15,280 nt of DNA from a virus. The notes under the pieces were generated by a model. The model saw nothing but the letters and a program-made list of their open reading frames with translations. It had not been told where the DNA came from and made no database searches. Below are positions 1 through 15,280 of the stretch, one piece after another (position 1 is the first letter of the stretch; the number at the start of each line of letters is the position of its first letter). A program made the position numbers and the translations under genes. The stretch lies in IMG/VR virus record IMGVR_UViG_3300035670_002020; one strand, 5' to 3'.

Positions 1-127
1 AATGTTGTGGCATATCTTGGTTAGCAACAATCTTTACAGTTTTCTTTTTGCCGTCAAACAATTCTGCAATTACAACAAAGCCTGTAAATAGTTTTCCGTC
101 TTCGTGAGCTGTATTTACAATTCTTAC
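1..127. repeat. Terminal overlap copy 1, identical to 15154-15280 (circular-assembly overlap)
   Basis: Base-by-base comparison shows 1-127 equals 15154-15280 with no mismatch. The repeat lies inside an ORF that reads in frame through the junction. Confidence 0.95.
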
Positions 128-190
128 TAGCTCACTAGCCATTACATCAGGTAGTTCTATTGTTTGTTTTTTTGCTTTAGGTTTACTCAT
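1..190 (-). CDS. Hypothetical protein, N-terminal part of a 98-aa ORF spanning the circular junction (continues at 15153..15047)
   Basis: ATG at 190..188 overlaps the endolysin stop (ATGA). The frame is open to nt 1 and, after circularisation, continues in frame to TGA at 15049..15047 (297 nt). Product: MSKPKAKKQTIELPDV...EEDDEDFYDPEWFDGQ. Confidence 0.6.
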   Translation of the reverse strand, partial: MSKPKAKKQTIELPDVMASELVRIVNTAHEDGKLFTGFVVIAELFDGKKKTVKIVANQDMPQH

Positions 191-594
191 ATTCCAAATG
201 CCTTTCCGTTAAGGTCGCCTGCCTGTGTAAAGGATATATGCAAATGTGATACGTGAGGGTTAGACCCTTTGTAGACACGCCAAGCCCAATTTTGTCGTGG
301 TGAGGCTATTCGGTGTTGGTGAATAATGTAACTAAGTCTTTTGTCGCCTTTGAGTGCAATTGTCTTAATTTGCTCAGCAAGTAGCCAAGACTCTTTACTA
401 GATCCTTTAACAAGATCTGCGTCAATATCTATAGCACGAACCCACCCATTCTTATCTGGGTTGTGGTCTGATTTACGTGCGTTGTGTGAAGTGTCGCCTA
501 TCCAGCCGTCCGAGCGTTTATCGCGCTTAGGATACTTGGCGTTTATTTCAGAGCGTAATTGCTCAGCTGCTTTACTTAACCTTGGTTTTGGCAT
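187..594 (-). CDS. Putative endolysin, zinc peptidoglycan peptidase of the LAS/M15-like type
   Basis: 135 aa with SDGWIGDTSHNARKSDHNPD...AIDID...NPHVSHLHIS. This gives an H/D...HxH metal-ligand pattern like VanY/M15-type peptidases and actinophage lysin domains. It sits at the end of the tail module, where lysis genes normally lie. Confidence 0.6.
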   Translation of the reverse strand: MPKPRLSKAAEQLRSEINAKYPKRDKRSDGWIGDTSHNARKSDHNPDKNGWVRAIDIDADLVKGSSKESWLLAEQIKTIALKGDKRLSYIIHQHRIASPRQNWAWRVYKGSNPHVSHLHISFTQAGDLNGKAFGI

Positions 595-742
595 TAGGGT
601 TCATAGCTCCCATTGAAGCAGCTACGACAGCACCTAATACAGCTCTGTAATCAAGGGCAAAGTCTGTTGCTTGCCAAGCTGCTAGGAAAGCAATTGCAGC
701 TAAAGAAAATTGTTTATGGTTAAAGGATTGAAGCAAGTTCAT
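572..742 (-). CDS. Small hydrophobic protein (56 aa), possible holin; below the track cutoff
   Basis: Hand translation gives MNLLQSFNHKQFSLAAIAFLAAWQATDFALDYRAVLGAVVAASMGAMNPNAKTKVK. It fills the otherwise non-coding 595-719 gap immediately upstream of the endolysin. The hydrophobic stretches are short (12-14 aa), the start is uncertain, and it overlaps both neighbours by 23 nt. Confidence 0.3.
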   Translation of the reverse strand: MNLLQSFNHKQFSLAAIAFLAAWQATDFALDYRAVLGAVVAASMGAMNPNAKTKVK

Positions 743-944
743 CTTTTGTAAGTCCTGCTATTTCTGCTAACTTTTTGATAGCAGATTCTCTGGCTTCTTG
801 TTTGGCTTTATACTCGGCTTCAACTAATTGAAATGCGACATTGTCGGCTTCGCGTTGTGCAATAAATTCTGCTTTAGAATCGCCAGTCAATTCAATAACT
901 TTTTCGCCAACACCAATAAATATTTTTTCAGTTGCCATTGTCAT
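720..944 (-). CDS. Hypothetical small helical protein downstream of the tail fibre
   Basis: The track gives a 74-aa ORF. The second ATG at 938 is the better start, since TAGGAG lies 8 nt upstream. The product is charged and coiled-coil-like (AEYKAKQEARESAIKKLAE), with no recognisable family. Confidence 0.5.
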   Translation of the reverse strand: MTMATEKIFIGVGEKVIELTGDSKAEFIAQREADNVAFQLVEAEYKAKQEARESAIKKLAEIAGLTKDELASIL

Positions 945-949
945 ATCTC

Positions 950-1564: not shown

Positions 1565-1584
1565 TGTTCTAGTTTATCCTTTTC

Positions 1585-2814
1585 TTAAATAACGTCAAGC
1601 CAACGAGTTGTATTGTCTAAATTCTGCCATTGGATCAAAGCGTTGTAGTCTTCCCATTGTACGTCAAGTGTTGAGTAGATTGAGTTAGATACAGACATTG
1701 TTAGCTCTAAGTTTCTGCGTCCTAGTGTCCAAGTCCAGCCCTCAACAAAGCCCTCAAAATAGCCCTCGGCTATTAAACCTATTGGGATATTGTCTAAATA
1801 TAAAAGGGTATCCATTGTGACACCTAGCAGATCATCACGAACAGTATTAGTCATTCCGTCATTGGCAAGGTTTACAGATATTGCTTCTAATGACGTTCTT
1901 GGTGTTCCACGATAATTAACAAAGTTTACAGCTTGTTCTTGGGCGTCTAATTGTTGTGCCAATATAGTGCTTCTGATTTCTTGTAACAAACCATAGTTAT
2001 TTATTGACGTATCGTTTTGAGCTGCTTCCTCTGCTATTGGGTCGTCATATTGAATAATTACGCTGTTAGTAATATCTGCTGTTTGTAGTCTTGTTTGTAT
2101 GTCAGCATTAACTAAATCTGCATTAAGTTCTATTAAGTTAGTTGCGTAGTTTTCGCTTCTGCGTTCAGCGTCAGCGTAACCAATCTCAAAGTCGGCTGTA
2201 TCGTATAAGTATCCTAAGCCTGATTGTTGGGTTAAATCTGTTAGGTTTGAGGCTTGGTCTATTTCAGGGTTTCTAGCTAGTACTTCGTAACGTCCAGCGT
2301 CAATTGTGTCTATGCCTTGCACACCATAGTTAGCCCAAGTTTCGGTAGTAAAATCGTTCCAAGTAAGTGTGTTACTTAAATCTTCCCAAGCAACAAACAA
2401 AGTTTCTTCTAGTATTCGTTGTATTCGTGCGCCGTCTAATTCTTCTGGGTAACTAACTGCGCCTGCTGTTCTTTTAACAAGTAAACCAAGTGCACCTATT
2501 GCTTGTATTTGTAATGTGTTAGGTTCACCACCTAAACCAGCACCATTAAAACTATTGTAAACACCTGAAACTTCACCCGTGAATAGTTTTATATATGATC
2601 CTAATGAATCAGTAACTTCTATGAGTACTGTGTCAAGTAGTTCAACTACTGGGCTTGCGCCGTCAAGGTTTAATAATTCTATATTGCAATAACTTGGTTG
2701 CGTTGGCTCAAAGAAATCATTACGACCATAAGTAATTGTGCCACCACTAAGAATTACGGAAGTTTGTACGACTCCAGCAATTGTTACCCTATAAGTTGGT
2801 GTGTAAACTGTCAT
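1585..2814 (-). CDS. Distal tail protein-like minor tail protein (Dit-like, extended)
   Basis: 409 aa, immediately downstream of the tape measure, which is the canonical Dit position. The N-terminus is beta-rich (YRVTIAGVVQTSVILSGGTITYGRNDFFEPTQP). An AAAGGA SD precedes the next gene. Confidence 0.5.
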   Translation of the reverse strand: MTVYTPTYRVTIAGVVQTSVILSGGTITYGRNDFFEPTQPSYCNIELLNLDGASPVVELLDTVLIEVTDSLGSYIKLFTGEVSGVYNSFNGAGLGGEPNTLQIQAIGALGLLVKRTAGAVSYPEELDGARIQRILEETLFVAWEDLSNTLTWNDFTTETWANYGVQGIDTIDAGRYEVLARNPEIDQASNLTDLTQQSGLGYLYDTADFEIGYADAERRSENYATNLIELNADLVNADIQTRLQTADITNSVIIQYDDPIAEEAAQNDTSINNYGLLQEIRSTILAQQLDAQEQAVNFVNYRGTPRTSLEAISVNLANDGMTNTVRDDLLGVTMDTLLYLDNIPIGLIAEGYFEGFVEGWTWTLGRRNLELTMSVSNSIYSTLDVQWEDYNALIQWQNLDNTTRWLDVI

Positions 2815-2818
2815 AGGT

Positions 2819-4093
2819 TTATCTAAAGCCGAAGTTGAAAGGTTTTATACCTGTTGTTTTAAGTGCTGTGTTTTGCACTTTAGTAATTGTTCTAGCTGTG
2901 CCTTGTGGGTCTATTGCACCTCTGACGTTGTTGTTAATTACAACTGTTGGCTTTTGTGTGTTAATTCCTACCAAGCCTTGTACTTTGCCTGATAGTGGGG
3001 CGTCTGGGGCAAATTGACCTGTTGCGCTTGCAAATTGTCCAATAAGTGAATTATCAAAGGCTTGCTTAAAATCTCTAAACTTTTGTACAGCTGAGTCAAT
3101 CTTTGCAAATAAACTATCTAAACCATTCACCATTGCTGTTAATAAGTTAATAAATCTTACAAAGCCTGATTCTGAACCTGTGGAAGAATCAAATTGTCCG
3201 GCTAAAGTTCCAAGACCTGAACCAAGGTCACGTAAAGCTGTGCCGAGATTATAACCGGCGTTTTCAGCGTTGTTTGTCTTTTCCTCAAACATTCCAAGGC
3301 TTGGGACAACTGCTTTCTTTTTACCTGTTAAGCCGTCTACGATTCCTTGTAATGCTGGGGCAAGTATGTCTGTTGCAAACTTTGCAAATCGTTCTAACAA
3401 TGGTAGTAGTGCTTGACCTAAACTTTCTTTGGCTTCATCTATTGCTATCTTAAATCTTGCAAGGCGACCAGCAAAAGTATTAGCAGCTGCGTCAGCTTGT
3501 CCCTCAAAAGTTTCAGATAAAGCAATAACGGCTTTATCAAAGTCCTTAGTTTTAACAATATTTTCATCAAGAGGCACACCGATACGCTTTAATGCACCAA
3601 GGTTGCCGTCATAGGCTTTACCTAATGCTTCTGTAACTGTGGCTAAATCTTTACCTGTACCAGCTGCAATATTTAATGCAAGTTGTTGTAGTTTTTGTGC
3701 TTTAGTAACGTCTTGTGTTGATCTAACAAGTCTGTCAAGGCTTGGACGTAATTGGTCGTCTGCTACACCTGTAGCGCGTGCTGTTTTGTCAATGTAATCT
3801 TCTGTGGCTTTAACTTGGGCGTCTGTAGCTTTTGTAACGTTTTTAAGTGTTTGTGCTAAAGATATTTGGGCTTTCTCATCTTCAATAGCTGCTTTAACGG
3901 CGTCTACACCGATTTTGATAGCTGCAACGCCAGCAGCTGCACCAAGAGCTGCAAAAGCAACAGCACCTTTTTTAAGTGCGCTACCTAACTTATCTGAAAA
4001 TGTACGTGTTTCTTTATCGGCTTTATCTAGTCCGTCTATGAATTGTTTAGTGTCAGCAAGTAACGCTAGTTTAAGCGTCCTAATGTCAGCCAT
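2819..4093 (-). CDS. Tape measure protein (about 424 aa)
   Basis: Ala/Leu/Lys-rich helical protein with a hydrophobic segment (GAVAFAALGAAAGVAAIKIG), located after the chaperones and before the distal tail genes. I prefer ATG at 4093 (TAATG overlap with the upstream stop) over the track's TTG at 4111. Confidence 0.75.
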   Translation of the reverse strand: MADIRTLKLALLADTKQFIDGLDKADKETRTFSDKLGSALKKGAVAFAALGAAAGVAAIKIGVDAVKAAIEDEKAQISLAQTLKNVTKATDAQVKATEDYIDKTARATGVADDQLRPSLDRLVRSTQDVTKAQKLQQLALNIAAGTGKDLATVTEALGKAYDGNLGALKRIGVPLDENIVKTKDFDKAVIALSETFEGQADAAANTFAGRLARFKIAIDEAKESLGQALLPLLERFAKFATDILAPALQGIVDGLTGKKKAVVPSLGMFEEKTNNAENAGYNLGTALRDLGSGLGTLAGQFDSSTGSESGFVRFINLLTAMVNGLDSLFAKIDSAVQKFRDFKQAFDNSLIGQFASATGQFAPDAPLSGKVQGLVGINTQKPTVVINNNVRGAIDPQGTARTITKVQNTALKTTGIKPFNFGFR

Positions 4094-4560
4094 TATAAAC
4101 CTGCTTTCCAAGCGTCTCTAATACGTTCATAACCTTTAAGCCATTCCTGAGCAATCGTTGGTTGAAATCTTGACATTGCACGATACAACCACCAACCCTC
4201 TTTACCACCCTTGCCAGAGCGTCTAGGGAACTGTTTGTATTGCTTTGATCCAAATTCATTACCCATTATCACATAACCAGCACTAAAAGCACTAGAGCCA
4301 ACTTTACGATTACCACCAATACTAAAACTTGGTGCTTTATCTGATTTAGATATTTTAATTGAGTCAGCAACGGCTTGTGCTTGTTTAACATTGTAAGGCG
4401 CATTACTAGCTGCACCTTTAGCGTAGTTAGCACCACGTTCTGCTAAAGCACTAGCAATTTGTTTCATATCTTTTTTAGCTATATCGTCCATTTTACTAAA
4501 TGCACGAAGAAGCCCACGATAGTCTTTATCAACTTTAACTAATTGAATTGCTTTAGCCAT
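4093..4560 (-). CDS. HK97 gp10-like tail-component / neck protein
   Basis: 155 aa. The motif GYVIMGNEFGSKQYKQFPRRSG...WWLYRA resembles the YA..vEfGt....PFl.pA core of the HK97 gp10 family (PF04883, from memory). The position between GT and the tape measure is atypical. Confidence 0.45.
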   Translation of the reverse strand: MAKAIQLVKVDKDYRGLLRAFSKMDDIAKKDMKQIASALAERGANYAKGAASNAPYNVKQAQAVADSIKISKSDKAPSFSIGGNRKVGSSAFSAGYVIMGNEFGSKQYKQFPRRSGKGGKEGWWLYRAMSRFQPTIAQEWLKGYERIRDAWKAGL

Positions 4561-4962
4561 TATTGCGCTCGTTCAATACGTCTATAGCTGTAGCCCATAT
4601 TTCGGGTTCGGCATTGAGCCAATAATCGGGTGTTATCCCAGTTGCTATTGCTAGTTCTACTGCTGTTCGCCCGATACTTCGGGCTTGGTAAAATTTGCTG
4701 TCTCAAAATCAGAAGCTGTAATATCGGTGACTTTACTTTTCCAAGTGTCAAAGTTCTCAACTTTTTTGGTAATGCGTTGTTGCATTTTGTGAGCCAAGAA
4801 TAGAAGAAGTGTGTTACTTGGTGTGCTTTCTTCAATAAGTATTTTAACAATTGACTTGCCGTTATATAGTTCTTTTTCTGCAAGTGATAGTTCAATTGGT
4901 CTAGTCCATTCATCAAACTTTTCACCTGTTTCTAATTCCCACGTTAATTTTAGTTTAAGCAT
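4553..4962 (-). CDS. Tail assembly chaperone GT-like product via programmed -1 frameshift (about 136 aa)
   Basis: From AAATTTT (4696..4690) the -1 frame stays open for 45 more codons to TAA at 4555..4553. The extension reads ...YQARSIGRTAVELAIATGITPDYWLNAEPEIWATAIDVLNERNNG and ends with an 8-nt overlap on the next ATG. This removes the 97-nt gap that would otherwise be non-coding. Confidence 0.65.
4657..4962 (-). CDS. Tail assembly chaperone (G-like, zero-frame product)
   Basis: 101-aa acidic protein directly after the major tail protein. The SD is AGGGG 7 nt before the ATG. A slippery heptamer lies near its 3' end. Confidence 0.7.
   Translation of the reverse strand: MLKLKLTWELETGEKFDEWTRPIELSLAEKELYNGKSIVKILIEESTPSNTLLLFLAHKMQQRITKKVENFDTWKSKVTDITASDFETANFTKPEVSGEQQ
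4669..4684 (-). promoter_or_regulatory. Frameshift-stimulating stem-loop (GCCCGA-AGTA-TCGGGC)
   Basis: Perfect 6-bp GC-rich stem with a 4-nt loop, starting 5 nt downstream of the slippery heptamer. This is the canonical spacing. Confidence 0.5.
4690..4696 (-). promoter_or_regulatory. -1 ribosomal frameshift slippery heptamer A_AAT_TTT
   Basis: The minus strand reads GCA AAT TTT in the G frame, so the X_XXY_YYZ phasing is correct. Confidence 0.65.
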
Positions 4963-4990
4963 TTGTGTGCCCCTGTTCTGTTTGTTGTTG

Positions 4991-5398
4991 TTACGCTGTT
5001 AGGTCTTCGGTTGGAATACCTACAACTTGTAGTGATACTGAACAAGTTTGTGCGTCTGCACCTGAAGCAGTAACCGGTGGGTATTGTGGTAATACTGTAC
5101 CAGTTAAAGTTACACCTGTTGTCAATGTCAAAACAAAAGCCAGAGCTGTGTCTGGTGCTGACTCGGTTGCGTCCCAAAGTGCTTTATATAAGCTGTCTGG
5201 GCTTTTACCTGCGTCATTCAAGAAATTAATATCTAGAGTGACGTTTGAGTCAATGTATTTGTATGCTTTTCCTGCAAGAGTGTCAAAAGTTAAACGTTCG
5301 GTATCAAAGTTGATAGCAGAATCTAAAATTTGTTCACTATAGTTTTTTGTAGCAATAGTTAAAGTTAAACTACGACCACTTAAAATAGTTGTTGCCAT
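4991..5398 (-). CDS. Major tail (tube) protein
   Basis: 135 aa, beta-rich, with a strong SD (GAAAGGT). It lies immediately upstream of the G/GT chaperone pair and after the connector genes. Confidence 0.6.
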   Translation of the reverse strand: MATTILSGRSLTLTIATKNYSEQILDSAINFDTERLTFDTLAGKAYKYIDSNVTLDINFLNDAGKSPDSLYKALWDATESAPDTALAFVLTLTTGVTLTGTVLPQYPPVTASGADAQTCSVSLQVVGIPTEDLTA

Positions 5399-5410
5399 TT
5401 CGTACCTTTC

Positions 5411-5782
5411 TTAGCCTGTGTAGGCTGTTTGTAGTTGTATTTCAGCAGTTAATAGATCAGTACTATTAGTGCTTCTAATTCTTGGGCTACTTACAGACAA
5501 TATTATCCAAGTTGTCGGCAAGAGTCCTAGAATTGTTTCTATATCGTCTTCCAAGTTTGTTAGCGCGCTTGGGTTAGAATACGTTGTACTAACAACTTCT
5601 AATGTTAGTCTTACGTAATAGTTTTTGCTATTGCCTATAACCATTGGTTCAAGGTATGGGTCACTAGCTAAAATTAGGCAGGCTGGGGGAATAATAATTT
5701 CTGGTACGTGATCATAAACAGAATACTTTGTATTTGAGGTGATTGCTGTTTTAAGTCCTGAACGTAGCGTACTTAACGGCAT
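5411..5782 (-). CDS. Tail terminator / head-tail joining protein (DUF3168-like)
   Basis: 123 aa. The pattern LKTAI...VYDHVPE...PPACLILAS...YVRLTLEVV resembles DUF3168-type tail terminators (from memory). The position just before the major tail protein fits. Confidence 0.45.
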   Translation of the reverse strand: MPLSTLRSGLKTAITSNTKYSVYDHVPEIIIPPACLILASDPYLEPMVIGNSKNYYVRLTLEVVSTTYSNPSALTNLEDDIETILGLLPTTWIILSVSSPRIRSTNSTDLLTAEIQLQTAYTG

Positions 5783-5784
5783 AA

Positions 5785-6363
5785 TTAACCTACTTGACTA
5801 TTAGAGTCAATATATTTACTAATTAAACCTGTAACTTTGTACAAAAGGGTTCTGCCCATACGATATGGGGCTGGTGTGTAATCAAGGGCTTGTTGTGTGC
5901 CACCTGCAGCTAGTCTTGATTGGAATACGTCTACAGCAATTTGTAGCACAGCTTCTTCAACAGCTGCTACGCCGTCATATTGTGATAAATCGTTTTCAGC
6001 TGCAATACCATTAGGTATAACGTTGTAATATTCGGTGTGAATTGGTGCGCCTGTTGTTGTAATTCTAAAAGTGTATGGATCAACTATATCTGAGATTGTT
6101 TTATTGCCGTTTACGTGTGCTTCAACACCTGATATGGCTATTGTTTGTCCGTCATAAAATTGGTGTGGTCTTGTTGTGTGTATTGTTGTTGTGGTTGCTG
6201 TTTCTGAATAGTGTTTATCTATTCCAACTTTCCATTGAATAAGAAAGTCACCTATTGCGTCTTCTGCTGTGTTAATTATTGCGTTTAGTGCTGTGTCATC
6301 ATAGAGAGTATTTGGAACGCCAAGTACAGCTCTTAACTGAGCTGCTGTTACTAATTCTGGCAT
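5785..6363 (-). CDS. Head-tail adaptor (gp6-like connector) with an internal insertion
   Basis: The N-terminus AQLRAVLGV...DDTALNAIINTAEDAIGDFL and the C-terminus AVLQIAVDVFQSR...YRMGRTL match the gp6/Phage_connect_1 pattern. An extra beta-rich segment of about 80 aa lies between them. The SD GAGAGG is 7 nt upstream. Confidence 0.6.
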   Translation of the reverse strand: MPELVTAAQLRAVLGVPNTLYDDTALNAIINTAEDAIGDFLIQWKVGIDKHYSETATTTTIHTTRPHQFYDGQTIAISGVEAHVNGNKTISDIVDPYTFRITTTGAPIHTEYYNVIPNGIAAENDLSQYDGVAAVEEAVLQIAVDVFQSRLAAGGTQQALDYTPAPYRMGRTLLYKVTGLISKYIDSNSQVG

Positions 6364-6383
6364 TTTATTTCCTCTCGTTTAGG

Positions 6384-6417
6384 GTGAGGCTAGCCACAGG
6401 GGCGAGACTAGCCTCAC
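6384..6417 (-). terminator. Strong stem-loop just downstream of the capsid gene (10-bp perfect stem, 14-nt loop; no U-tract)
   Basis: GTGAGGCTAG...CTAGCCTCAC perfect inverted repeat, extendable by G-U and C-G pairs, within the 68-nt gap between the capsid stop and the adaptor start. It could be a partial or I-shaped terminator, or an mRNA-stabilising hairpin. Confidence 0.5.
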
Positions 6418-6431
6418 GTCTTAGTGGTTTA

Positions 6432-7979
6432 TCAGGTTAAGTTAAACCAGTTTGCGCCAGCTGCAATTTTTGTAGCTAGTGCGCCGTATCCGTAGTAATT
6501 AACGTCAATTTGACCTGTGTTAATTACGTTGGTGCGTAGTGACAATCTTGGTGATTCGTACCAAGTGTAAGCGTCAGGGTTTACTACAGCCATTGAATAA
6601 TCTGCTGTGCCTACTCCACCTGAGCCAGTAAAGTTACGGGACACATATAGATCAAGTCCTGCAACTGAGCCACGCAGAGATTGTGGGCTTACTGCTCCAC
6701 CTGCGTTGCTTGGTTGTGAAGCTGTGTAGATTGGACGACCTGCGTCGTTGTAACCCATAATGTTACCCCATTGTTCAGGTGTAACAATAAGTGCGCGAGC
6801 AAAACCAAGTGAAGCTGAATAAACAGCTGCAGCTGCAGATGACACGTAAGCAATTAAGCCTTCTTTGTCATTGTCTTGTGGTGTTGCGTTAAGTGTTCCT
6901 GTACCTTGCATAGCTTGACCAACGAATGAGTCTGTTGCTTTTGCGTATGCGTATTCCATTTGACGTACTAATTCGTCAAAGAATACTGGTGATGAACGAT
7001 CTAATAATTCAACTGACAATGTTTGTTGTCCACCAAATTTTTTAACTGATACTGACACAAAAGATGAAGCTGTATCTGTTTCAGATAATGCTGAAGCCTC
7101 TGAAGCCTCTGCAACTGTTGGTGCTGTTGTAATTTTTGGAATCTCAAAAGACATACCTGAAGTTGGTAATGTTCCTTTACTGATTGCGTCAATAACTCCA
7201 CGATCAGCGTTTGCAATTCCGTTAATTACTTCGGTTGATTGTGGGGTTGGAATAAAACCTGCGTTGTTTGAGGTTGTGTCAGCTGCCATTACATATTGAC
7301 GGCTGTCTTCATTACCTAGAGCTGCTCTTAATGAGTGTTCTAAGTATGATCCTTTAGAAACAATTGGGCTTCTTGGTGCTGTGAAGATTGCAGGGCGTGC
7401 GTTACGTTCCTGTGCTTCAACAGCTGGGGTTGCTACAACTTCAGCTGCAACTTCCTCTACTACTTCTGGGGTAACTTCGTTTGACACGATAGTTTCCTCA
7501 CTTTCTGTTGTTGGTTGTGAAGTTTCTGCGCTTGCAGCTACTTCGGTTATTTGTGCGTATTCGCCAAATGCTGGAAATGTGACGTGTGAAACTTCTTTTA
7601 AGGTTGCTTCATTAACAATTACTTGTTCGCCTTTGGTGACGTAGTCGTCAATCATTGCGCCTACGCTAAATCCGGTTCGTAAACCCTCTTGTGCTTCGGC
7701 TAATGCGTCATCACCTGCATTGGTTCTTGCTATCTTGAATGTTCCGACAATTCCTTTGTCGTCTTCTTCATATCTTGATAATTTGCCAATTGGTCTAGTC
7801 ATATCGTGCTCGGTAAAAAGTTTAATACCTTCACCGATTTTTAATGAGCCTTGTTGAAAAACAACATCACCCATATTGGTATGTCCTACCTGACCAAAAG
7901 GAACAATAACGCCTGTTAATTCACGTTTTGATGAATTAGCTGCGATAATGTCGGTTGAGAACTTAATAAAGTTATTCAT
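6432..7979 (-). CDS. Fused prohead protease (HK97 gp4 / S78-like) - acidic linker - HK97-fold major capsid protein
   Basis: Residues 1 to about 146 carry protease motifs (FTEHDMTRPIGKL, GFSVGAMI, LKEVSHVTFPAF). Residues about 147-205 form a Glu/Val/Thr/Ala-rich low-complexity linker. The C-terminal 310 aa or so look like an HK97-type capsid protein (KKFGGQQTLSVELLDRS...). It is one uninterrupted 515-aa ORF, and its start overlaps the portal stop (ATGAATAA). Confidence 0.75.
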   Translation of the reverse strand: MNNFIKFSTDIIAANSSKRELTGVIVPFGQVGHTNMGDVVFQQGSLKIGEGIKLFTEHDMTRPIGKLSRYEEDDKGIVGTFKIARTNAGDDALAEAQEGLRTGFSVGAMIDDYVTKGEQVIVNEATLKEVSHVTFPAFGEYAQITEVAASAETSQPTTESEETIVSNEVTPEVVEEVAAEVVATPAVEAQERNARPAIFTAPRSPIVSKGSYLEHSLRAALGNEDSRQYVMAADTTSNNAGFIPTPQSTEVINGIANADRGVIDAISKGTLPTSGMSFEIPKITTAPTVAEASEASALSETDTASSFVSVSVKKFGGQQTLSVELLDRSSPVFFDELVRQMEYAYAKATDSFVGQAMQGTGTLNATPQDNDKEGLIAYVSSAAAAVYSASLGFARALIVTPEQWGNIMGYNDAGRPIYTASQPSNAGGAVSPQSLRGSVAGLDLYVSRNFTGSGGVGTADYSMAVVNPDAYTWYESPRLSLRTNVINTGQIDVNYYGYGALATKIAAGANWFNLT

Positions 7980-9075
7980 TAATTAAGTCTTCCCTTTCTC
8001 TTGCTTCCTCTACTGTCATTACACCAAGAGGAATAAGTTTTTGATATATTTCAGCGCGTTCTATAGCACTTGGGCTATAAAATTCTTCTAAATCAAATTT
8101 TACTATAGATCCACGTGGCGTAATATCGTTGTCGCTTAATCTTTGTGTAATACAAGTCATTAAAGGTTTTAATGACAAATCTATTAGGCTTCTTCTTTCA
8201 GCTGTAACGTTTGAGTAAGTCATTGAGCCACCTGCGTTACCACCTACGTAGTATTCAGGTAAATTACAAGCCCGACTTATTTCGGAAGCCATATATTGAC
8301 GTGCTTGGTTTAGCGTTAATTGTTCTGGGCTAAATCCTATGCTTTGGAAATCTATTGTGTCGTTTACAAAAGCTGTGCCACGTGTCTGTCTTGCTTCTTT
8401 CCAAGAATTTAATAGGGCTGTAACTCTTTCGGCTGGCATTGGCAAGTTAGATTTCAACACAACGTTAGGTGTTGGTTCGTCTGCAAATCTTTTAACTGCC
8501 TTTTCTAAAGCTAGTGCCGTAAGTATTGTTGTTCCTGCTCTTACAAGTAGTCCTTCGTCATATCCTGTAAATGGAATTAAAGAACCTAAACCATTTTCAG
8601 GTACACGATTGCCGTCTACGCTGTAATAACGTACGTTGTGACCTAATGAATCTAAAGTTCTAGTAATTCTTGATACTGAAATCCATTCAGCAGACAAAGG
8701 TCGTCCGTCTGTGCCAAGTTCAAGTATTCTTAAATATCCTTGACCTGTAAATAGTAAATCTTCTGCTAAAAATGTATATACAGATTGTCCTGTCATACGT
8801 GGGTCTGGTTGTCTAATAAAAGGTGGGGTCGGAACTTTACTGTTGTTTGATTCGCGTCTAACTTCTAATGGTAATGATCCGATAGTTGCACAAATAATGT
8901 TTCTAGCTCTTGCAACGGCTGGTACTTGCATTGCTTGGGCGCGTGATACTGCTGATAAACCAAAATAGTCAAAAGGTTGGGCGTATTGTTGATAATTGTA
9001 TGGTGCTACAGCTGCGTCTACTTTGTTTGCGCTGTTGTCAGGTGTAACACCTAATAGATTTTGGAAGAAGCCCAT
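7972..9075 (-). CDS. Portal protein (HK97 family-like)
   Basis: 367 aa between the terminase and the protease/capsid gene. The motif AMQVPAVARARNIICATIGSLPLEV resembles the conserved HK97-type portal N-terminal region. Confidence 0.75.
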   Translation of the reverse strand: MGFFQNLLGVTPDNSANKVDAAVAPYNYQQYAQPFDYFGLSAVSRAQAMQVPAVARARNIICATIGSLPLEVRRESNNSKVPTPPFIRQPDPRMTGQSVYTFLAEDLLFTGQGYLRILELGTDGRPLSAEWISVSRITRTLDSLGHNVRYYSVDGNRVPENGLGSLIPFTGYDEGLLVRAGTTILTALALEKAVKRFADEPTPNVVLKSNLPMPAERVTALLNSWKEARQTRGTAFVNDTIDFQSIGFSPEQLTLNQARQYMASEISRACNLPEYYVGGNAGGSMTYSNVTAERRSLIDLSLKPLMTCITQRLSDNDITPRGSIVKFDLEEFYSPSAIERAEIYQKLIPLGVMTVEEAREREDLINE

Positions 9076-9116
9076 AACTTCTAATTCTTTACCAAATCGT
9101 TATAATAGTCAAGCAC

Positions 9117-10553
9117 CTAAGCAACTACAATGTCTTGGTTTGACCCACGTATGCCGTACTGTTCAGCCTTAAATATTGCTAAGACCATTGAAATAGCAGC
9201 TGTTGATTGTTGTCGGCGCATAATATACCAAGCCCCAGACTCGTTTGCTTTTTTAATACAAGAATTAACGCTAGCTGTTAAATCAGGTTGATTACTATGA
9301 GCAAGTCTACCACCACTCATAGCCGATAATGTTGCGTCGCAGGCTTGGTAGTAGTCACTTCCTTTAATAACTTCTGCGTTTATGCCTGCCTGTCTTAGTT
9401 TGGCAACAACTGAGTCACCACTAAACCTATTAGCAACAATGGCTTCTGCGTTGTAATGTTTAGCCCACTCTGAAACACGTCCAGCAATAATTAAATCATC
9501 TATTGCGTATTCGGATTCAACACATTCCATTAGTCCTACAGCTATTGAGCCGTCATCAATTATTTGTGTTCCTGTTAATGCCCAACTTGTGCGCTCTGGT
9601 GATATTTCTAAACCTAACCAAGTTGATCTGTCTGGTTTAAGTTCAAGTATTGGTTGCATACAAGAGTTCCAAGAGCCAAGTGCCCAAGGGCTGTTCATTG
9701 TTGTTACCCACATACTTAAACACTCGGTCATAAAGACTTCTGTTGGGTCTGACATTCTGGCTTTGATTGCTGATATGTCAATAGTGCGACCTAGTGCAGG
9801 GTTTGCTTCTTTCCAGCCCTCTATGTCGTTTAGTTTTCTGTGTGGTGCAGCTGACCATTCCATAAAGTTGATGTCATCATCTGTATCTTTTTCAATTTTG
9901 TCTAATGCACGTTGTCTTAGGTTGTTTAGTACAACGCTTTGATGATCACCTGCGTTACTGATAAAGAACCCTTGAGAATTTGGGCGTGCTTGCATTGTGT
10001 ATGCCAAAGCACTAAAGGCGTCAAAGGTTTTATGTTGTCTTACTTCGTCTAAATAAACTGTGTCTGATGATAGTCCTCTAGCTGCGCCTGCTGTTGGTGC
10101 AATAATTTTGTATCTGCAACCTGAGCCTTTGATTTCTATTTCTTCTCGACCATTAGCTCTTGTTATGTGTTTAACTTTACGTCTAAGCCAATCAAAGTTA
10201 TCTACAACTTCTATAACTTGTCTAAATGTTTCTAAAGATAAGTCTCTGTTTTGTGCTGTTGCTACTTGTAGTTTCTCGTCCCATAGGTAAAGCCCTGCAA
10301 GGATACGCATACGCAGTAAATGTGTTTTGCCATTTTGTCTAGCTGCAATAATCAGGTTAGTTTTGTGTTGAAATGAGCCGTCTTCTTTTATTTTGCTTGT
10401 TTCAAGTATGACGTTTTCTTGCCAAGGCAGTAAAGGCATACCAATCTGTTTGGCAAACTCAACAACTTCGTGACCTTTAGTTTGGCTTACTAATGGTGTG
10501 GTCTGTAGTCTCGGTTCTGAGTTGCCGTAATGCTTCAAGTGGGTCTTCACCAA
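9117..10553 (-). CDS. Terminase large subunit
   Basis: Contains LLPWQ, Walker A-like AARQNGKTHLL, Walker B-like VYLDEV and a C-terminal nuclease-size domain. The start is uncertain (TTG 10553, GTG 10550 or TTG 10538) and overlaps the 3' end of the small terminase gene. Confidence 0.85.
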   Translation of the reverse strand: MVKTHLKHYGNSEPRLQTTPLVSQTKGHEVVEFAKQIGMPLLPWQENVILETSKIKEDGSFQHKTNLIIAARQNGKTHLLRMRILAGLYLWDEKLQVATAQNRDLSLETFRQVIEVVDNFDWLRRKVKHITRANGREEIEIKGSGCRYKIIAPTAGAARGLSSDTVYLDEVRQHKTFDAFSALAYTMQARPNSQGFFISNAGDHQSVVLNNLRQRALDKIEKDTDDDINFMEWSAAPHRKLNDIEGWKEANPALGRTIDISAIKARMSDPTEVFMTECLSMWVTTMNSPWALGSWNSCMQPILELKPDRSTWLGLEISPERTSWALTGTQIIDDGSIAVGLMECVESEYAIDDLIIAGRVSEWAKHYNAEAIVANRFSGDSVVAKLRQAGINAEVIKGSDYYQACDATLSAMSGGRLAHSNQPDLTASVNSCIKKANESGAWYIMRRQQSTAAISMVLAIFKAEQYGIRGSNQDIVVA

Positions 10554-10800
10554 CTTCTAATTCAGGTTTCTCTTTACGACCAAACAAGCTAAGCCCATAC
10601 TTATCTAAGATTTGTTGTAACTGTCCCATATACTTAACTTCTTCAATAGGTTTCAGTGTTCCACCGTCAAGAACACCAGCTAAAGTAAACGCCATAGCCA
10701 TACCAGCTGCGTCTAAGTCTGAGATAATTCCCTGACGTAATGCTTCGTCGTGTGCACGATCTAATGCTGGCAGAATTCTGTGCTTTTCTTCTTTAATCAT
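10477..10800 (-). CDS. Putative terminase small subunit (107 aa)
   Basis: Synteny: it sits between the HNH and the large terminase genes. I prefer ATG at 10800 (ATGATTAA overlap with the HNH stop, AAGGGG upstream). The track's 138-aa form extends into the HNH gene and looks like read-back. Confidence 0.5.
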   Translation of the reverse strand: MIKEEKHRILPALDRAHDEALRQGIISDLDAAGMAMAFTLAGVLDGGTLKPIEEVKYMGQLQQILDKYGLSLFGRKEKPELEVGEDPLEALRQLRTETTDHTISKPN

Positions 10801-11167
10801 TACGATTAACCCCTTTAGGTAATTGGAACGGGCTTTTAAGCTCTTTCGGAGAGAAAGAAGTGGCAGGGGTCGGTGGTGTCTTATCGTGCTCAAAAAATCG
10901 TATCATTTCTTTTTCTTTTCGCTTTCTTGCTCGTTTACGATTGTATTCTTGCTCGGTCTTTGATCCTTTAGAGTAGTTGCAATGTTTGCAAGCAGTAACG
11001 AGATTACTGAGTTCATCTGTGCCCCCTTTATGGATGGGTGTGAGATGATCGACTGTATTAGCTGTAGTAATTCCACAGTAGTAGCAGGTGTGGTTGTCTC
11101 GTTTAAGTACGAATGTTCTGAGTTTTCGCCAACGTGTTGATGATCCATTACGTTTAATTATATCCAT
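10793..11167 (-). CDS. HNH endonuclease (terminase-associated)
   Basis: Motifs CYYCG...VDHLTPIHKGGTDELSNLVTACKHCNYSKG. It lies directly upstream of the terminase genes, as in HK97-like cos phages. Confidence 0.85.
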   Translation of the reverse strand: MDIIKRNGSSTRWRKLRTFVLKRDNHTCYYCGITTANTVDHLTPIHKGGTDELSNLVTACKHCNYSKGSKTEQEYNRKRARKRKEKEMIRFFEHDKTPPTPATSFSPKELKSPFQLPKGVNRND

Positions 11168-11176
11168 ATGTTAATT

Positions 11177-11182
11177 ATTATA
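11177..11182 (-). promoter_or_regulatory. Candidate -10 box (TATAAT) for a leaderless or short-leader HNH/late transcript
   Basis: Perfect TATAAT 9 nt upstream of the HNH ATG, which has no SD. No convincing -35. Confidence 0.3.
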
Positions 11183-11313
11183 TATGTTAAGAACCTTTGA
11201 GTGTTGAAGTACAGAGAATGGCTTGAATGTAAACCACTCTCATAGTTGAACCCCTGAGGTTTCGTACTATCGAATGGAAGCCTTATTGGTTATTCGGCTT
11301 AGTCTTGCCATAT

Positions 11314-11365
11314 CATCACAAACTTATGTAGCTACTAGAAGACTCGTTAATAGCAGTTTGTGATG
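11314..11365. repeat. 11-bp perfect inverted repeat (CATCACAAACT / AGTTTGTGATG) with a 30-nt spacer
   Basis: Read directly: 11314-11324 is the reverse complement of 11355-11365. The spacer contains the 8-bp palindrome GTAGCTAC (11328-11335). Confidence 0.8.
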
Positions 11366-11505
11366 TCGTAACTTCTCGTATTGTTACACGCTACGTTGAT
11401 TAGGCATAGATAAGTAACGCCCTCTGACGGCGATTAAATTGGCTATCAACCAACCCTAGACTTTAGGTTTAGACTTGGCACTAGCTACCAAGTATGTAAC
11501 TTATA

Positions 11506-11754
11506 TCAGTAATCGTTGTAGTTGTCTATCCTTGGGTCTTGTATCCAATCATTTATTATCATTAAGTTTTCTTTACGTGCTAAATCACGATCTACTTTAT
11601 CTTGGTATTCTTCTAACTTCTTTTTATCGTCAAGCATTTTTTGGTAACACTTAGCGTCACGGCAGGGCACTTCTCTGCTGTTATCGTAATCGTAGTGATA
11701 ATGCAAGTATATTACTTTACTCATTGTCGCAATCGTGTTGTAATTCTTTGGCAA
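11506..11754 (-). CDS. Hypothetical protein (72-82 aa)
   Basis: ORF with a TTG at 11754 or an ATG at 11724 (MSKVIYLHYHYDYDNSREVPCRDAKCYQKM...). Charged and helical, with no recognisable family. It is the last gene before the ORF-free region. Confidence 0.5.
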   Translation of the reverse strand: MPKNYNTIATMSKVIYLHYHYDYDNSREVPCRDAKCYQKMLDDKKKLEEYQDKVDRDLARKENLMIINDWIQDPRIDNYNDY

Positions 11755-11794: not shown

Positions 11795-11880
11795 TATTTG
11801 AGATATAACTTAATTGCTATAGATAGTGACGCAACACTTACAAACGCCCCAGCAAACATACCTATTATAAATTGTTGCAT
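11794..11880 (-). CDS. Candidate micro-ORF, 28 aa, hydrophobic (MQQFIIGMFAGAFVSVASLSIAIKLYLK)
   Basis: Its ATG overlaps the methyltransferase stop as TAATG, and its own stop overlaps the next ATG as TAATG. It contains a single hydrophobic helix. Confidence 0.35.
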   Translation of the reverse strand: MQQFIIGMFAGAFVSVASLSIAIKLYLK

Positions 11881-12380
11881 TATTTAGCTCTTTCCATAGA
11901 ATTTGTACCAACAAACAAATCTAATAATACATCATCTTTTTCATAACCTAACAAACTTAATACCCATTTGTTAAATTCATCTGGCTTAGCACCTTGTAAA
12001 CCTGTTTTGCGTGTTGGTGAGGTCATTAGCCAATCTTTTACCATTGGTTTACGACTACCTAATTTTTTGTTTGTCTTGAATAACACACACTCGTACATAT
12101 ATTGAGTCATTACAGGACGTATTTGTGCATAAGGTTTTACCCAAACAGCCATACGTGTTTTGTCAGGGCATTGTGGTAATAACCAACTTATATCTCGTGG
12201 GTTACAACTTAAAGCCCAACCATCATAAGCGTTATCCATCATAGTAACCAAATCTATGTGGGTCATTCTGTCGTCCCATATATAGGCTTCTTCGTGGTGT
12301 TTTTGATACATTTTTTTACCCATACCAAAATATGGTGGGTCAGCATAAGCAAATATCATTTGATCCTTTGCATACACCAT
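11880..12380 (-). CDS. Compact beta-class (N6-adenine/N4-cytosine type) DNA methyltransferase-like protein
   Basis: ADPPY (motif IV) lies almost at the N-terminus. The C-terminus has GAKPDEF...DDVLLDLFVGTNS, resembling the HPxxKP...vLDPFxGSGTT motif I region. Only 166 aa, or 159 aa from ATG 12359, which has an AAGGA SD. Confidence 0.6.
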   Translation of the reverse strand: MVYAKDQMIFAYADPPYFGMGKKMYQKHHEEAYIWDDRMTHIDLVTMMDNAYDGWALSCNPRDISWLLPQCPDKTRMAVWVKPYAQIRPVMTQYMYECVLFKTNKKLGSRKPMVKDWLMTSPTRKTGLQGAKPDEFNKWVLSLLGYEKDDVLLDLFVGTNSMERAK

Positions 12381-12425
12381 TTGCAGTAACTAGCGTTATA
12401 ACACCAACCACCACAGCTAACACAT

Positions 12426-12536
12426 CTACTTATCAAATTTAACATAGTTTTTGACCACCTCAAACAAGTTAGCCAAACCAAACACAGCTAGTATTACACC
12501 TGCAAACAGTAATGCGTCTATGTATCTTTGTTCCAT
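12426..12536 (-). CDS. Candidate micro-ORF, 36 aa, single-pass membrane peptide (MEQRYIDALLFAGVILAVFGLANLFEVVKNYVKFDK)
   Basis: ATG with an AGGGG SD 7 nt upstream and a clear hydrophobic core. Below the track cutoff. Confidence 0.4.
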   Translation of the reverse strand: MEQRYIDALLFAGVILAVFGLANLFEVVKNYVKFDK

Positions 12537-12555
12537 TTGTTGCCCCTGTCTTGAC

Positions 12556-12693
12556 TTAGTGTTTTTTTTCTACTATCTTTCTTGCTTCTTCCATATCATC
12601 TTGATTGTGGAAGTTTGATGATTTGCTGAGTAAGTCTTGTGATATTGAGAGTCGTAAGACTTGCTCTAGACGATATACGTCTTGTGGTTTCAT
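12556..12693 (-). CDS. Hypothetical 45-aa protein (MKPQDVYRLEQVLRLSISQDLL...)
   Basis: Internal ATG of the 104-aa track ORF, preceded by AAAGGGGGG 3 nt upstream. The longer form overlaps the Rpf gene by 92 nt and has an implausible N-terminus. Confidence 0.45.
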   Translation of the reverse strand: MKPQDVYRLEQVLRLSISQDLLSKSSNFHNQDDMEEARKIVEKKH

Positions 12694-12713
12694 TCGCCCC
12701 CCTTTCTTATGTC

Positions 12714-12779
12714 TTATTGTCGCATAAACAACGCTAATAACACCAGAAACACACCAACAAATACGATAATTGTTTCCAT
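12714..12779 (-). CDS. Candidate micro-ORF, 21 aa, hydrophobic (METIIVFVGVFLVLLALFMRQ)
   Basis: Its ATG overlaps the Rpf-gene stop as TAATG. The peptide is almost entirely a transmembrane-like helix. Confidence 0.35.
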   Translation of the reverse strand: METIIVFVGVFLVLLALFMRQ

Positions 12780-13087
12780 TATTTAACCCCCGTAATTTTT
12801 GAGCATTGTGGAAATGCTCGACTAAATCCTTGCTTAGACACAAGCAACTGTGCGCGTTTATATTGTTCACGCACAGAAGCCCGTGCAGGGTCGCCAGACC
12901 CCCCTACCCATTCCCACGATCTGTTATCAAACTGAAACAAGCCCCTATACTTGCCTGTTCGATTTACAGCTTGTGGGTTTAATGACGACTCACAGAACGC
13001 AATTTTCCGGTAACGCTCTGGTAGTAGCTCAACGTCATTAAAATATGGGTCAAGTAGTAATAGTTCTAAAATTGTTCTGTCTTCCAA
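12779..13087 (-). CDS. Stand-alone Rpf-domain (resuscitation-promoting-factor-like) lytic transglycosylase, 102 aa
   Basis: FCESSLNPQAVNRTGKYRGLFQFDNRSWEWVGGSGDPARASVREQYKRAQLLVSKQGFSRAFPQCSKITG aligns motif for motif with the Micrococcus luteus Rpf domain as I recall it ([49 protein letters not shown]...WPLCSQKLG). The catalytic Glu and both cysteines are included. The start is a TTG overlapping the upstream gene by 22 nt. Confidence 0.8.
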   Translation of the reverse strand: MEDRTILELLLLDPYFNDVELLPERYRKIAFCESSLNPQAVNRTGKYRGLFQFDNRSWEWVGGSGDPARASVREQYKRAQLLVSKQGFSRAFPQCSKITGVK

Positions 13088-13812
13088 TCTGCAGCTGCCG
13101 TTTCAGCCTGTTCGTGGCTTGACGGAAGTCTAGAAGCGTTTAACCAAGCACTAAGGTTATCTGCCAATTGTTGCTGTTGATCTAATTGGTTTTTAACGAT
13201 TGTGTATGGTGCGAATTCTAGCTTAGAAAACTCCTGTTCCTTACTTAGGAATTGCAGATATTTCAGTAGTTTCTCTTTATCCCAATCAGTATAGATACGC
13301 TTACAGAGACTATGCAAGAAGTTTATTTGCTTTTCTGTAGCAACTCTATAAGACCCAAAATAGCCCATTTCTAAGCCTTGCCCTTGTCCTGATATAGGCG
13401 CAGGGGTTTCGGGGCTAATTTTGCCCTTATTTTGGCTTAAATCGGTATCTGGTGGGGTCTGCCAAGGGTCGTTTTCTGTGTTCACGTTACGTTGTACTTC
13501 CTCTCTAGAAGCAATGCCTTTAGTAACAGCAATACCAAGAGCTGCAATAGCACGACCCCAAGCACTTGTTTCAAGGGTCATCATTTCAGCACCTTTAGCA
13601 AAGCCTCTAGCTGGTACACGTTCCCAAGCCCAGCCACTTGCGTAAGCCATTTTGTCGCGTTCAGGGTAAGCAAAGGCTTCACCATAAATATAAGTTTCGC
13701 CATTAAACTCAAGTACACCTTTATATTGAAAATGCAAAGTGCCCTCTGGATATTTGTCGTAAAACATTTGTATACGATCTTTAACTTCTATGTAGTTCTT
13801 CAGATAATCCAC
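13066..13812 (-). CDS. Putative DNA-binding recombination/replication protein (tentatively Rad52/Sak-like N-terminal domain)
   Basis: 248 aa, with a GTG start and a TAGGAG SD 8 nt upstream. LETSAWGRAIAALGIAV...IASREEV resembles the E(S/T)xAxxRAxxxxGIG motif of Rad52/Sak-type annealases. The C-terminal ATEKQINFLHSL-type helix is of unknown function. The family assignment is weak. Confidence 0.3.
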   Translation of the reverse strand: MDYLKNYIEVKDRIQMFYDKYPEGTLHFQYKGVLEFNGETYIYGEAFAYPERDKMAYASGWAWERVPARGFAKGAEMMTLETSAWGRAIAALGIAVTKGIASREEVQRNVNTENDPWQTPPDTDLSQNKGKISPETPAPISGQGQGLEMGYFGSYRVATEKQINFLHSLCKRIYTDWDKEKLLKYLQFLSKEQEFSKLEFAPYTIVKNQLDQQQQLADNLSAWLNASRLPSSHEQAETAAADWKTEQF

Positions 13813-14828: not shown

Positions 14829-15050
14829 TTACCTCTTTCGTTTAGGCTTACCTAACTGTGTGTTAATACTATCTATAGTACTACGAATTTTTGTGACCTC
14901 AATCTGTAGGCGTGTCACTTTATCGTTTAATGATGAACCACCATTAGGAAATAATTGGCTTTTCATTTTAGTTATTTCAACTGTTGCTTTTACAACTAAA
15001 ATAAGGACTGTAATAAGTAAACCAATAATGCCTACGAGTTCGTTTATCAT
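14829..15050 (-). CDS. Single-pass membrane protein with a coiled coil and basic C-terminus (73 aa); holin-like or exclusion-like
   Basis: N-terminal LVGIIGLLITVLILVV helix, a heptad-like middle region and a KPKRKR tail. Its ATG overlaps the upstream stop (ATGA). Confidence 0.55.
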   Translation of the reverse strand: MINELVGIIGLLITVLILVVKATVEITKMKSQLFPNGGSSLNDKVTRLQIEVTKIRSTIDSINTQLGKPKRKR

Positions 15051-15280
15051 TGTCCGTCAAACCACTCCGGATCGTAAAAGTCCTCGTCGTCTTCTTCGGG
15101 TGACATTGTGAATTGGTATTTCTCAGCTGCATAGTTGATAATGCCAAATACTGAATGTTGTGGCATATCTTGGTTAGCAACAATCTTTACAGTTTTCTTT
15201 TTGCCGTCAAACAATTCTGCAATTACAACAAAGCCTGTAAATAGTTTTCCGTCTTCGTGAGCTGTATTTACAATTCTTAC
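15047..15280 (-). CDS. Same junction-spanning 98-aa ORF, C-terminal part (5' end runs off the window end; 15154-15280 duplicates 1-127)
   Basis: The open frame enters from the window end. TGA at 15049..15047 overlaps the next ATG (ATGA). It is absent from the ORF track because it has no start within this copy. Confidence 0.6.
   Translation of the reverse strand, partial: VRIVNTAHEDGKLFTGFVVIAELFDGKKKTVKIVANQDMPQHSVFGIINYAAEKYQFTMSPEEDDEDFYDPEWFDGQ
15154..15280. repeat. Terminal overlap copy 2, identical to 1-127
   Basis: Exact 127-nt identity with the window start. 127 is a common maximum k-mer length in de Bruijn assemblers, which emit circular contigs with a k-length overlap. Confidence 0.95.

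Follow-up and report, generated by a model that had tools for sequence, protein, structure and literature searches.

A conserved, signal-less mini-Rpf of uncultured miniphages as a candidate second lysis enzyme

Introduction

What use does a very small phage make of a resuscitation-promoting factor (Rpf) domain that it encodes as a free gene, at a distance from its lysis genes? The question is raised by the IMG/VR virus record IMGVR_UViG_3300035670_002020, a stretch of 15,280 nucleotides (nt) that was analysed over its full length and is called the window below. All plausible genes of the window lie on the minus strand, and one of them, which an initial annotation had singled out from the letters alone, encodes a protein of 102 amino acids (aa) of the Rpf type. 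We put at about 0.5 the probability that this protein is a holin-dependent, glycan-cutting second lysis enzyme, acting as the partner of a peptidase-type endolysin (g135) encoded elsewhere in the window. The initial annotation had named three roles, a virion-borne wall-penetration enzyme, a second lysin and a factor that wakes dormant hosts, and had made no choice between them; the other roles are weighed with the evidence that bears on them. The gene and its two parts are as follows.

12779..13087, minus strand: gene for a 102-aa lytic transglycosylase of the Rpf type, starting at TTG, 22-nt overlap with the end of the upstream gene
13016..13087, minus strand: conserved N-terminal extension, residues 1-24, pattern xILExLL..P..VELLP
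12803..13015, minus strand: catalytic Rpf domain, residues 25-95 (Pfam envelope), with the catalytic glutamate E33 and the Cys32/Cys95 pair

The gene encodes a complete Rpf catalytic domain

The translation of the gene (MEDRTILELLLLDPYFNDVELLPERYRKIAFCESSLNPQAVNRTGKYRGLFQFDNRSWEWVGGSGDPARASVREQYKRAQLLVSKQGFSRAFPQCSKITGVK) matched the Pfam profile PF06737 ('Transglycosylas') with an E-value of 2.6e-12 and 47.7 bits, above the gathering score of 27, the match covering residues 25-95 of the protein and positions 6-77 of the 77 in the model. The SLT profile gave a weak score of 18.7 bits, under that model's cutoff. The motifs named in the initial annotation are all present, namely CES (C32-E33-S34), G.Y.G..QF (G45-F53) and the block SW..VGG.G.P..AS..EQ..RA, together with both cysteines, C32 and C95. 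Residues C32, E33, S34 and C95 were invariant across 49 Rpf homologues. Searched with phmmer against the PDB, the protein matched RpfC (2n5z, 7e-8), RpfE (4cge, 1.9e-6) and RpfB, and its CES motif and two cysteines aligned with those of RpfC and RpfE. As in these two proteins, C32 and C95 are a candidate disulfide pair.

An AlphaFold2 model of the protein, obtained with the 49 homologues, reached a mean predicted local distance difference test (pLDDT) score of 87.8, with values >90 for residues 21-102. The top 15 PDB matches returned by Foldseek for this model were all catalytic domains of RpfC, RpfE or RpfB; target-normalised TM-scores against the catalytic-domain chains were 0.75-0.87, with root mean square deviations of 1.5-2.0 Å for most of them, and MltF and MltE appeared as distant matches. 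By every criterion of sequence and structure, the 102-aa protein belongs to the Rpf family, and the profile search and the superposition proposed earlier both bear out that assignment. Its description as a bare Rpf domain was right about the domain, on profile, sequence and fold, but 'bare' goes a little too far, because residues 1-24 form a conserved extra segment. The conserved, predicted N-terminal helix of ~20 residues had been overlooked, as had a coupled transmembrane (TM) micro-gene and the recurrence of the mini-Rpf in other phage families, both of which are described below.

A constrained core gene with a TTG start

Relatives were compared within a same-family set of 80 IMG/VR loci whose portal identity ranged from 85 to 98%. 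The TTG start is retained in most relatives, and an ATG occupies the aligned codon in locus L017 (MGYSTILEIL...) and in the homologues P0001 and P0002. Across 16 family members, the median pairwise ratio of nonsynonymous to synonymous substitution (dN/dS) was 0.14 at a median dS of 0.69, and the open reading frame (ORF) is under purifying selection. Translation of the TTG-initiated ORF had been left in doubt; the start kept in relatives, the aligned ATG and the purifying selection mark it as a real gene. No Shine-Dalgarno sequence was found ahead of its start, which lies 22 nt within the preceding gene, g248, so translational coupling to g248 is likely.

13066..13812, minus strand: g248, conserved partner upstream of Rpf, its 3' end overlapping the Rpf start; matches PHROG 23738 and PHROG 11717

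In all miniphage lineages examined, a g248 homologue stands directly ahead of Rpf and overlaps it. The two PHROG families matched by g248 (E 2.2e-21 for PHROG 23738) are both of unknown function, and searches of g248 and its homologues against Pfam, and of g248 against the PDB by phmmer, gave zero matches. A precomputed annotation, PF27148 (Slr1353_N), is attached to one g248 homologue.

In a tblastn presence/absence matrix, Rpf was found in 17 out of 17 family loci containing both flanking genes. It was also found in divergent miniphage lineages, at 58-65% identity, and the place it takes in the replication arm, following a gene of ~248 aa, is kept across >40% protein divergence. A collection of 5.8 billion proteins contained 68 clusters of Rpf homologues, 91-110 aa in length, many of them on contigs of 14.7-14.9 kb. 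Rpf, a free-standing gene as first described, with g248 on one side and a set of micro-genes on the other, is a core gene of uncultured ~15-kb miniphages that are heavily represented in public metagenomes. An Rpf gene that seemed to be inverted onto the minus strand of locus L074 (IMGVR_UViG_3300020042_005403) was rejected as an assembly artefact of an inverted-join chimera. Positions 1-6468 and 7307-11639 of that locus read on opposite strands, and a tape-measure fragment is duplicated and inverted in it.

The N-terminal extension carries no export signal

By hydropathy, neither a signal peptide nor a TM segment was detected in Rpf, as the initial annotation had held. Its N-terminus is too short, polar and acidic, and a basic n-region is missing; the Kyte-Doolittle maximum over 19 residues (KD19) was 0.81, whereas true TM segments, both nearby and in a cellular homologue, reach 1.9-2.7. 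A signal-arrest-release (SAR) or signal-anchor N-terminus was also rejected, since the hydrophobic run spans just ~9-11 residues and is broken by Glu and Asp. A secreted growth factor would be expected to bear a signal or an anchor; the window Rpf has neither, whereas its cellular and prophage relatives have clear signals.

Within the extension, AlphaFold2 predicted helices at residues 4-12 and 14-20 with low confidence (pLDDT 47-64), and, judging from the model, the conserved helix would take no part in the catalytic fold. Similar N-termini (MLVEAIFALT...) occur in other phage families.

A conserved and unexplained N-terminal segment would suit an enzyme that is packaged in the virion, with the helix possibly serving as a targeting tag, and ejected at entry to open the wall. 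The catalytic core weakly matches two PHROG families of tape measures (phrog_16277 and phrog_13339, with E-values of 2e-3 to 4e-3), and no muralytic motif was found in the phage's own tape measure.

2819-4111, minus strand: tape measure

Piuri and Hatfull are said to have found, in 2006, that peptidoglycan-hydrolase motifs of tape measures help phages to infect stationary-phase cells. We nevertheless regard an entry function as very improbable: in every miniphage lineage Rpf lies outside the structural module, beside genes of the replication arm, and a soluble protein of 102 aa has no known route into a siphovirus tail.

A separate lysis cassette with a probable peptidase-type endolysin

The genes of a lysis cassette are located in another part of the window.

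187..594, minus strand: g135, probable primary endolysin, with a metallopeptidase-like domain of peptidoglycan-hydrolase type that has no Pfam model; after the tail genes
572..742, minus strand: g56, small, weakly hydrophobic membrane protein and holin/antiholin candidate, overlapping the g135 start; maximum over 11 residues (KD11) 2.35, KD19 1.45
14829..15050, minus strand: g73, holin-like and lying two genes downstream of g135; TM segment at the N-terminus, highly charged tail at the C-terminus; KD19 2.63

Searches of g135 against Pfam and, by phmmer, against the PDB gave no matches, as did the search of its homologue MONT_30 against the PDB, and the AlphaFold model of g135, made from a shallow alignment, had a pLDDT of 40. 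Its homologues are numerous, with 5064 representatives at 50% identity, and six positions are invariant (H37, H44, D56, H114, H117 and H119), a set of His and Asp residues that suggests a metallopeptidase. Among 69 diverse homologues, PG_binding_1 occurs in 29, PG_binding_3 in 13 and M23 in 4, and domains of the lysozyme, SLT, GH25 or GH108 type occur in several. In Glutamicibacter phage Montesquieu, MONT_30 is located directly upstream of the annotated holin. Given these domain partners and this synteny, g135 is probably an enzyme of the peptidoglycan-hydrolase type and the primary endolysin of the phage. In appearance, g73 is more holin-like than g56, and the lysis block may span g56, g135, g55 and g73.

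The presence of a distinct lysis cassette at 187-742 makes Rpf a second muralytic gene. Its start lies 1.7 kb past g73, three genes further, and ~2.4 kb downstream of g135. The initial annotation had placed Rpf outside the lysis cassette and in the early region; g135 and the small membrane proteins g56 and g73 do lie elsewhere, and Rpf stands in a non-structural arm between the metallophosphoesterase/g248 block and the HNH end.

Evidence for and against a second lysis enzyme

The proposal that Rpf is a glycan-cutting lysis enzyme working beside g135 is built on direct observations: the identity of the domain, its fold and catalytic residues, the missing signal, purifying selection, conservation, and a separate lysin of peptidase type. 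A muralytic domain devoid of a secretion signal is a mark of classical holin-dependent endolysins, and this is the make-up of Rpf. Cutting of both glycan and peptide can be considered the usual combination, because diverse g135 homologues are fused to lysozyme, SLT or GH25 domains. In M. tuberculosis, RpfB is synergistic with the endopeptidase RipA.

The search of environmental phage contigs that had been suggested at the outset found Rpf both in the miniphages and in other uncultured phage families. A profile search returned 4687 relatives, many of which are signal-less, 96-107 aa long and located on contigs of 15-40 kb, and the signal-less mini-Rpf recurs in at least two uncultured phage types beside the miniphages. 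In an unrelated ~40-kb family that carries sigma-70, DnaB and GP88 genes, an Rpf of 97-101 aa closes the late operon and is located in an M23/TM lysis block. There, a TM protein of 84-85 aa comes first, followed by an M23 peptidase, a small protein of 64-93 aa (with two TM segments in L091, the sole one read) and Rpf. From the miniphages and the context of this family, every phage type examined pairs Rpf with a peptidase-type lysin. A small TM protein also adjoins Rpf throughout, in the miniphage lineages and, as read in L091, in the ~40-kb family. In a third phage type (L101, 1483-8997), a block of 84-aa, M23, 334-aa and 60-aa genes and the Rpf gene lie ~5 kb apart. The intervening accessory genes of L101 encode T5orf172, a GT2 glycosyltransferase, a methyltransferase and Lyase_1, and the junction ahead of Rpf looks like a hotspot for insertions.

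Acting at lysis, Rpf would be translated in coupling with the upstream g248 and, having no export signal, would accumulate in the cytoplasm as a lytic transglycosylase. In this reducing compartment it would be harmless, since the Cys32-Cys95 disulfide would form outside only, which may provide a safety latch. Access to the wall would be given only by membrane lesions, made by g73/g56, by the TM micro-protein coupled to Rpf, or by both. Once released, Rpf would use Glu33 to cleave bonds that join N-acetylmuramic acid (MurNAc) to N-acetylglucosamine (GlcNAc), while the g135 peptidase would cut stem peptides or cross-links. In this scheme we infer that Rpf is enzymatically active, when it is expressed, how it gets to the wall and that it cooperates with g135.

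Several points weigh against a lysis function. The chief argument is the conserved placement of Rpf in the replication arm, which keeps three rival explanations alive: the miniphage gene stands apart from the lysis cassette, 1.7 kb beyond the holin-like g73, within the non-structural arm and in translational coupling to it. In L101, too, ~6.5 kb separate Rpf from the M23 gene. Cellular Rpfs are weak bulk muralytic enzymes and not obviously good lysins, and g135 alone may suffice for lysis. Moreover, among 50,697 phage records, no cultured phage has the signal-less form of Rpf.

If Rpf does act as a lysin, it would represent, with the peptidase, a minimal two-gene lysis solution for presumed actinobacterial hosts, as well as an easily expressed enzyme against the walls of hard-to-culture bacteria.

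A transmembrane micro-gene coupled to Rpf

Downstream of Rpf, a chain of micro-genes (12356-12779) encodes a 21-aa TM protein, a 45-aa soluble protein, a TM protein of 36-44 aa, a 29-aa CxxC...CxxC protein and further small products; after the 21-aa gene, four further micro-genes are conserved. Relatives add to the chain a 28-aa TM protein and a zinc-ribbon-like protein of 25-43 aa. The first three members in the window are listed here.

12714..12779, minus strand: 21-aa single-pass hydrophobic micro-gene (METIIVFVGVFLVLLALFMRQ), its ATG sharing one base with the Rpf stop (TAATG)
12556..12693, minus strand: 45-aa soluble micro-protein (AAAGGGGGG), with a strong Shine-Dalgarno sequence and homologues in L099 and L100
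12426..12536, minus strand: 36-aa single-TM micro-protein (MEQRYIDALLFAGVILAVFGLANLFEVVKNYVKFDK), KD19 2.24

The micro-gene at 12714-12779 (KD19 2.65, dN/dS 0.40) is present as an intact hydrophobic ORF of 21-23 codons in 16 of 16 family loci, with an ATG or GTG 0-4 nt from the Rpf stop. In divergent miniphages, the same slot is taken by a one-TM protein of 46 aa or 78-86 aa that overlaps the Rpf stop. The overlap between the two genes is conserved, but their relative frame is not, with offsets of -4, -1, 0 and +1 among relatives. Because of this variation, the idea that read-through joins Rpf and the TM micro-ORF in one fusion protein was discarded, and an overlap that is kept while the frame changes points to coupled expression of two proteins.

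Such coupling would also fit a wall remodeller with a membrane partner, in which the TM micro-protein exports Rpf or tethers it to the membrane before lysis and the wall is loosened or altered locally, the pair for instance priming lysis, excluding superinfecting phages or acting as a minimal holin-lysin pair. Consistent with this, a one-TM protein overlaps the Rpf stop in all miniphage lineages despite its change in length (21-23, 46 or 78-86 aa), the start-stop overlap is conserved with a variable frame, and a small protein (64-93 aa, with two TM segments in L091) lies directly before Rpf in the ~40-kb family. The conserved N-terminal helix, outside the catalytic fold, could be a docking element. 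On the other hand, the adjacency may merely reflect the dense packing of micro-genes in the arm, the dN/dS of the micro-ORF (0.40) is relaxed, and a peptide of 21 aa is, to our knowledge, shorter than any characterised holin. We consider a remodelling function quite improbable.

Cellular relatives, presumed host and dormancy

The closest relatives of cellular type (P0068, P0209 and others) share 55-60% identity over the domain and possess a signal peptide and a LysM domain. Rpf peptide patterns, scanned across 185,579 species genomes, gave two matches in all, both weak, unrelated and SLT-like: one in an Acutalibacteraceae genome and the other in a metagenome-assembled genome of Gastranaerophilales. 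A close cellular homologue was not detected in this set, which thus neither points to a recent host donor nor assigns the host directly. The portal and terminase find their nearest cultured relatives, at ~30% identity, in tiny actinophages and in Microbacterium and Curtobacterium phages. Rpf had been put forward as a clue to an actinobacterial host, and the relatives of portal, terminase and g135 in actinophages lend it independent backing; from these affinities, the host is presumed to belong to the Actinobacteria.

The related contigs are presumably of freshwater origin, which we assume from their match to a described miniphage size class and from the sample series. Freshwater 'miniphages' of ~15 kb have been described as an abundant size class, in a report that leaves this Rpf gene unmentioned (PMC6802176). 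The cultured 'Ca. Planktophila' phages (39 kb) were set aside as a different family, and Rpf is unmentioned in their paper.

Complete and equipped with every catalytic feature, the Rpf domain could also serve as a factor that activates the host, keeping the infected cell active or waking neighbouring low-activity cells after lysis through the muropeptide signals that cellular Rpfs produce, so that more permissive hosts become available. Secreted LysM-Rpf proteins are its nearest relatives of cellular type, its conserved site among replication-arm rather than lysis genes fits host manipulation, and the presumed hosts are slow-growing oligotrophs. The Rpf of M. luteus is active at picomolar concentrations. 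During infection by Rhodococcus phage WC1, four host rpf genes are up-regulated, for which the authors suggest a phage-driven prevention of dormancy (PMC10986025). Against such a function, the wall of a living infected cell is out of reach of an Rpf without a signal peptide, unless a partner exports it; a benefit gained through neighbouring cells is an indirect selective advantage; and the gene of the ~40-kb family is located within the lysis module. A dormancy-breaking role is in our view unlikely, and nothing in the data favours it over lysis.

The mini-Rpf and its coupled TM micro-protein may together form a tool for the control of host dormancy in slow-growing freshwater Actinobacteria, one that would be exported during infection or released at lysis and would produce waking muropeptide signals. 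This would explain why Rpf is found in the host-takeover/replication arm and why it recurs in several unrelated abundant phage families, but we hold the idea to be distinctly unlikely. A dormancy role, if true, would show directly that a virus can manipulate the actinobacterial resuscitation pathway and could aid the cultivation of freshwater lineages.

Organization of the genome

The first and last 127 nt of the window form an exact terminal direct repeat (1-127 = 15154-15280). Because of this repeat, the window represents a genome of 15,153 bp assembled as a closed circle, and the earlier designation as a mini-phage can be extended to a complete miniphage of that size. The remaining landmarks, all on the minus strand, are the following.

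6432-7979: protease-capsid fusion
7972-9075: portal
9117-10553: large terminase
10477-10893: 138-aa gene, read from its position as a putative small terminase
10793-11167: HNH nuclease, right-end gene of the non-structural arm
11880-12380: DPPY-motif DNA methyltransferase, 166 aa
14055-14798: metallophosphoesterase (PHROG 221, E 4e-61)

Many family contigs (IMG/VR loci L010-L089) start ~1785 nt upstream of the portal, between the HNH gene and the 138-aa gene at 10477-10893, which suggests that a physical genome end (cos) is located there. From such an end, the genome would run through terminase, head and tail genes to the lysis block (g74, g56, g135, g55 and g73) and on to the non-structural arm, whose order we infer to be metallophosphoesterase, g53, g248, Rpf, micro-gene chain, g82 and HNH. 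In other family contigs, a break falls between g248 and HNH, and this suggests a hotspot of microdiversity in the stretch from Rpf to HNH. In the sister locus L102, a related miniphage is assembled as a concatemer-like contig of 24,955 bp.

The methyltransferase gene is missing from all 89 related loci. Its first seven residues (MVYAKDQ) are those of a 36-aa TM micro-ORF at the same site in L012, L019 and L022, and the gene looks like a recent in-frame insertion or replacement. A megablast search of the whole window against the 50,697 phage records gave zero matches. A scan of the genome for promoters and terminators performed no better than on shuffled sequence and is uninformative on the timing of expression.

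Comparison with known systems

The window Rpf shares with the actinobacterial Rpfs (M. luteus Rpf and M. tuberculosis RpfA-E) the PF06737 domain, the fold, the catalytic Glu and the cysteine pair. It differs from them in being phage-encoded and in having no signal peptide, membrane anchor, LysM, G5 or DUF348 domain, and it bears an extra conserved N-terminal helix. It also reads GKYRGLFQFD where cellular Rpfs have the canonical GxYGGLQF.

Among the 50,697 phage records, the only match at E <= 1e-3 was gene 102 of the M. abscessus prophage prophi79-1 (MW584153.1), at 39% identity. Like the window Rpf, the product of this gene, annotated as a resuscitation-promoting factor, is phage-borne, single-domain, 102 aa long and encoded outside the lysis cassette. 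It differs by a classical cleavable signal peptide (MTKLKLIAVSVVFAAASSTFVAHAHA), which points to a secreted Rpf of the lysogenic-conversion type; unlike this prophage, the window phage has no recognisable integrase. The Rpf-like motifs of mycobacteriophage tape measures provide the same catalytic core in actinophages, in keeping with the weak tape-measure matches of the window Rpf, but they sit in a structural protein of >1000 aa delivered with the virion, whereas the 102-aa window Rpf has a gene of its own, located in the non-structural arm.

The nearest cultured relatives, Arthrobacter phage Kels (14.8 kb) and Gordonia phage EricDab (16.6 kb), share with the window the capsid-protease fusion, the HNH gene at the right end and a genome of 15-17 kb, their portals being ~31-34% identical to that of the window. 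In both, the endolysin is split into two separate single-domain genes. These two are adjacent and of peptidase and amidase types, whereas the second enzyme of the window is an Rpf-type transglycosylase ~2.4 kb downstream. The R protein of phage lambda is a small, soluble, signal-less lytic transglycosylase endolysin that needs membrane lesions to reach the wall. It belongs to the same lysozyme-like clan as the window Rpf, though to a different family within it, and its gene lies in a compact cassette between holin and spanins, unlike that of the window Rpf. By analogy, a two-enzyme lysis by g135 and Rpf would mirror the multi-domain or split lysins of actinophages, the pairing of RpfB with RipA, and lambda R.

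Rpf-type domains are already known in phage lytic proteins, PF06737 being listed 203 times among those in PhaLP (PMC8310338), and a secreted stand-alone Rpf is known in a mycobacterial prophage. What is new here is a compact, signal-less Rpf of ~100 aa with a conserved N-terminal helix and a coupled tiny membrane protein, maintained as a fixed core gene of miniphages.

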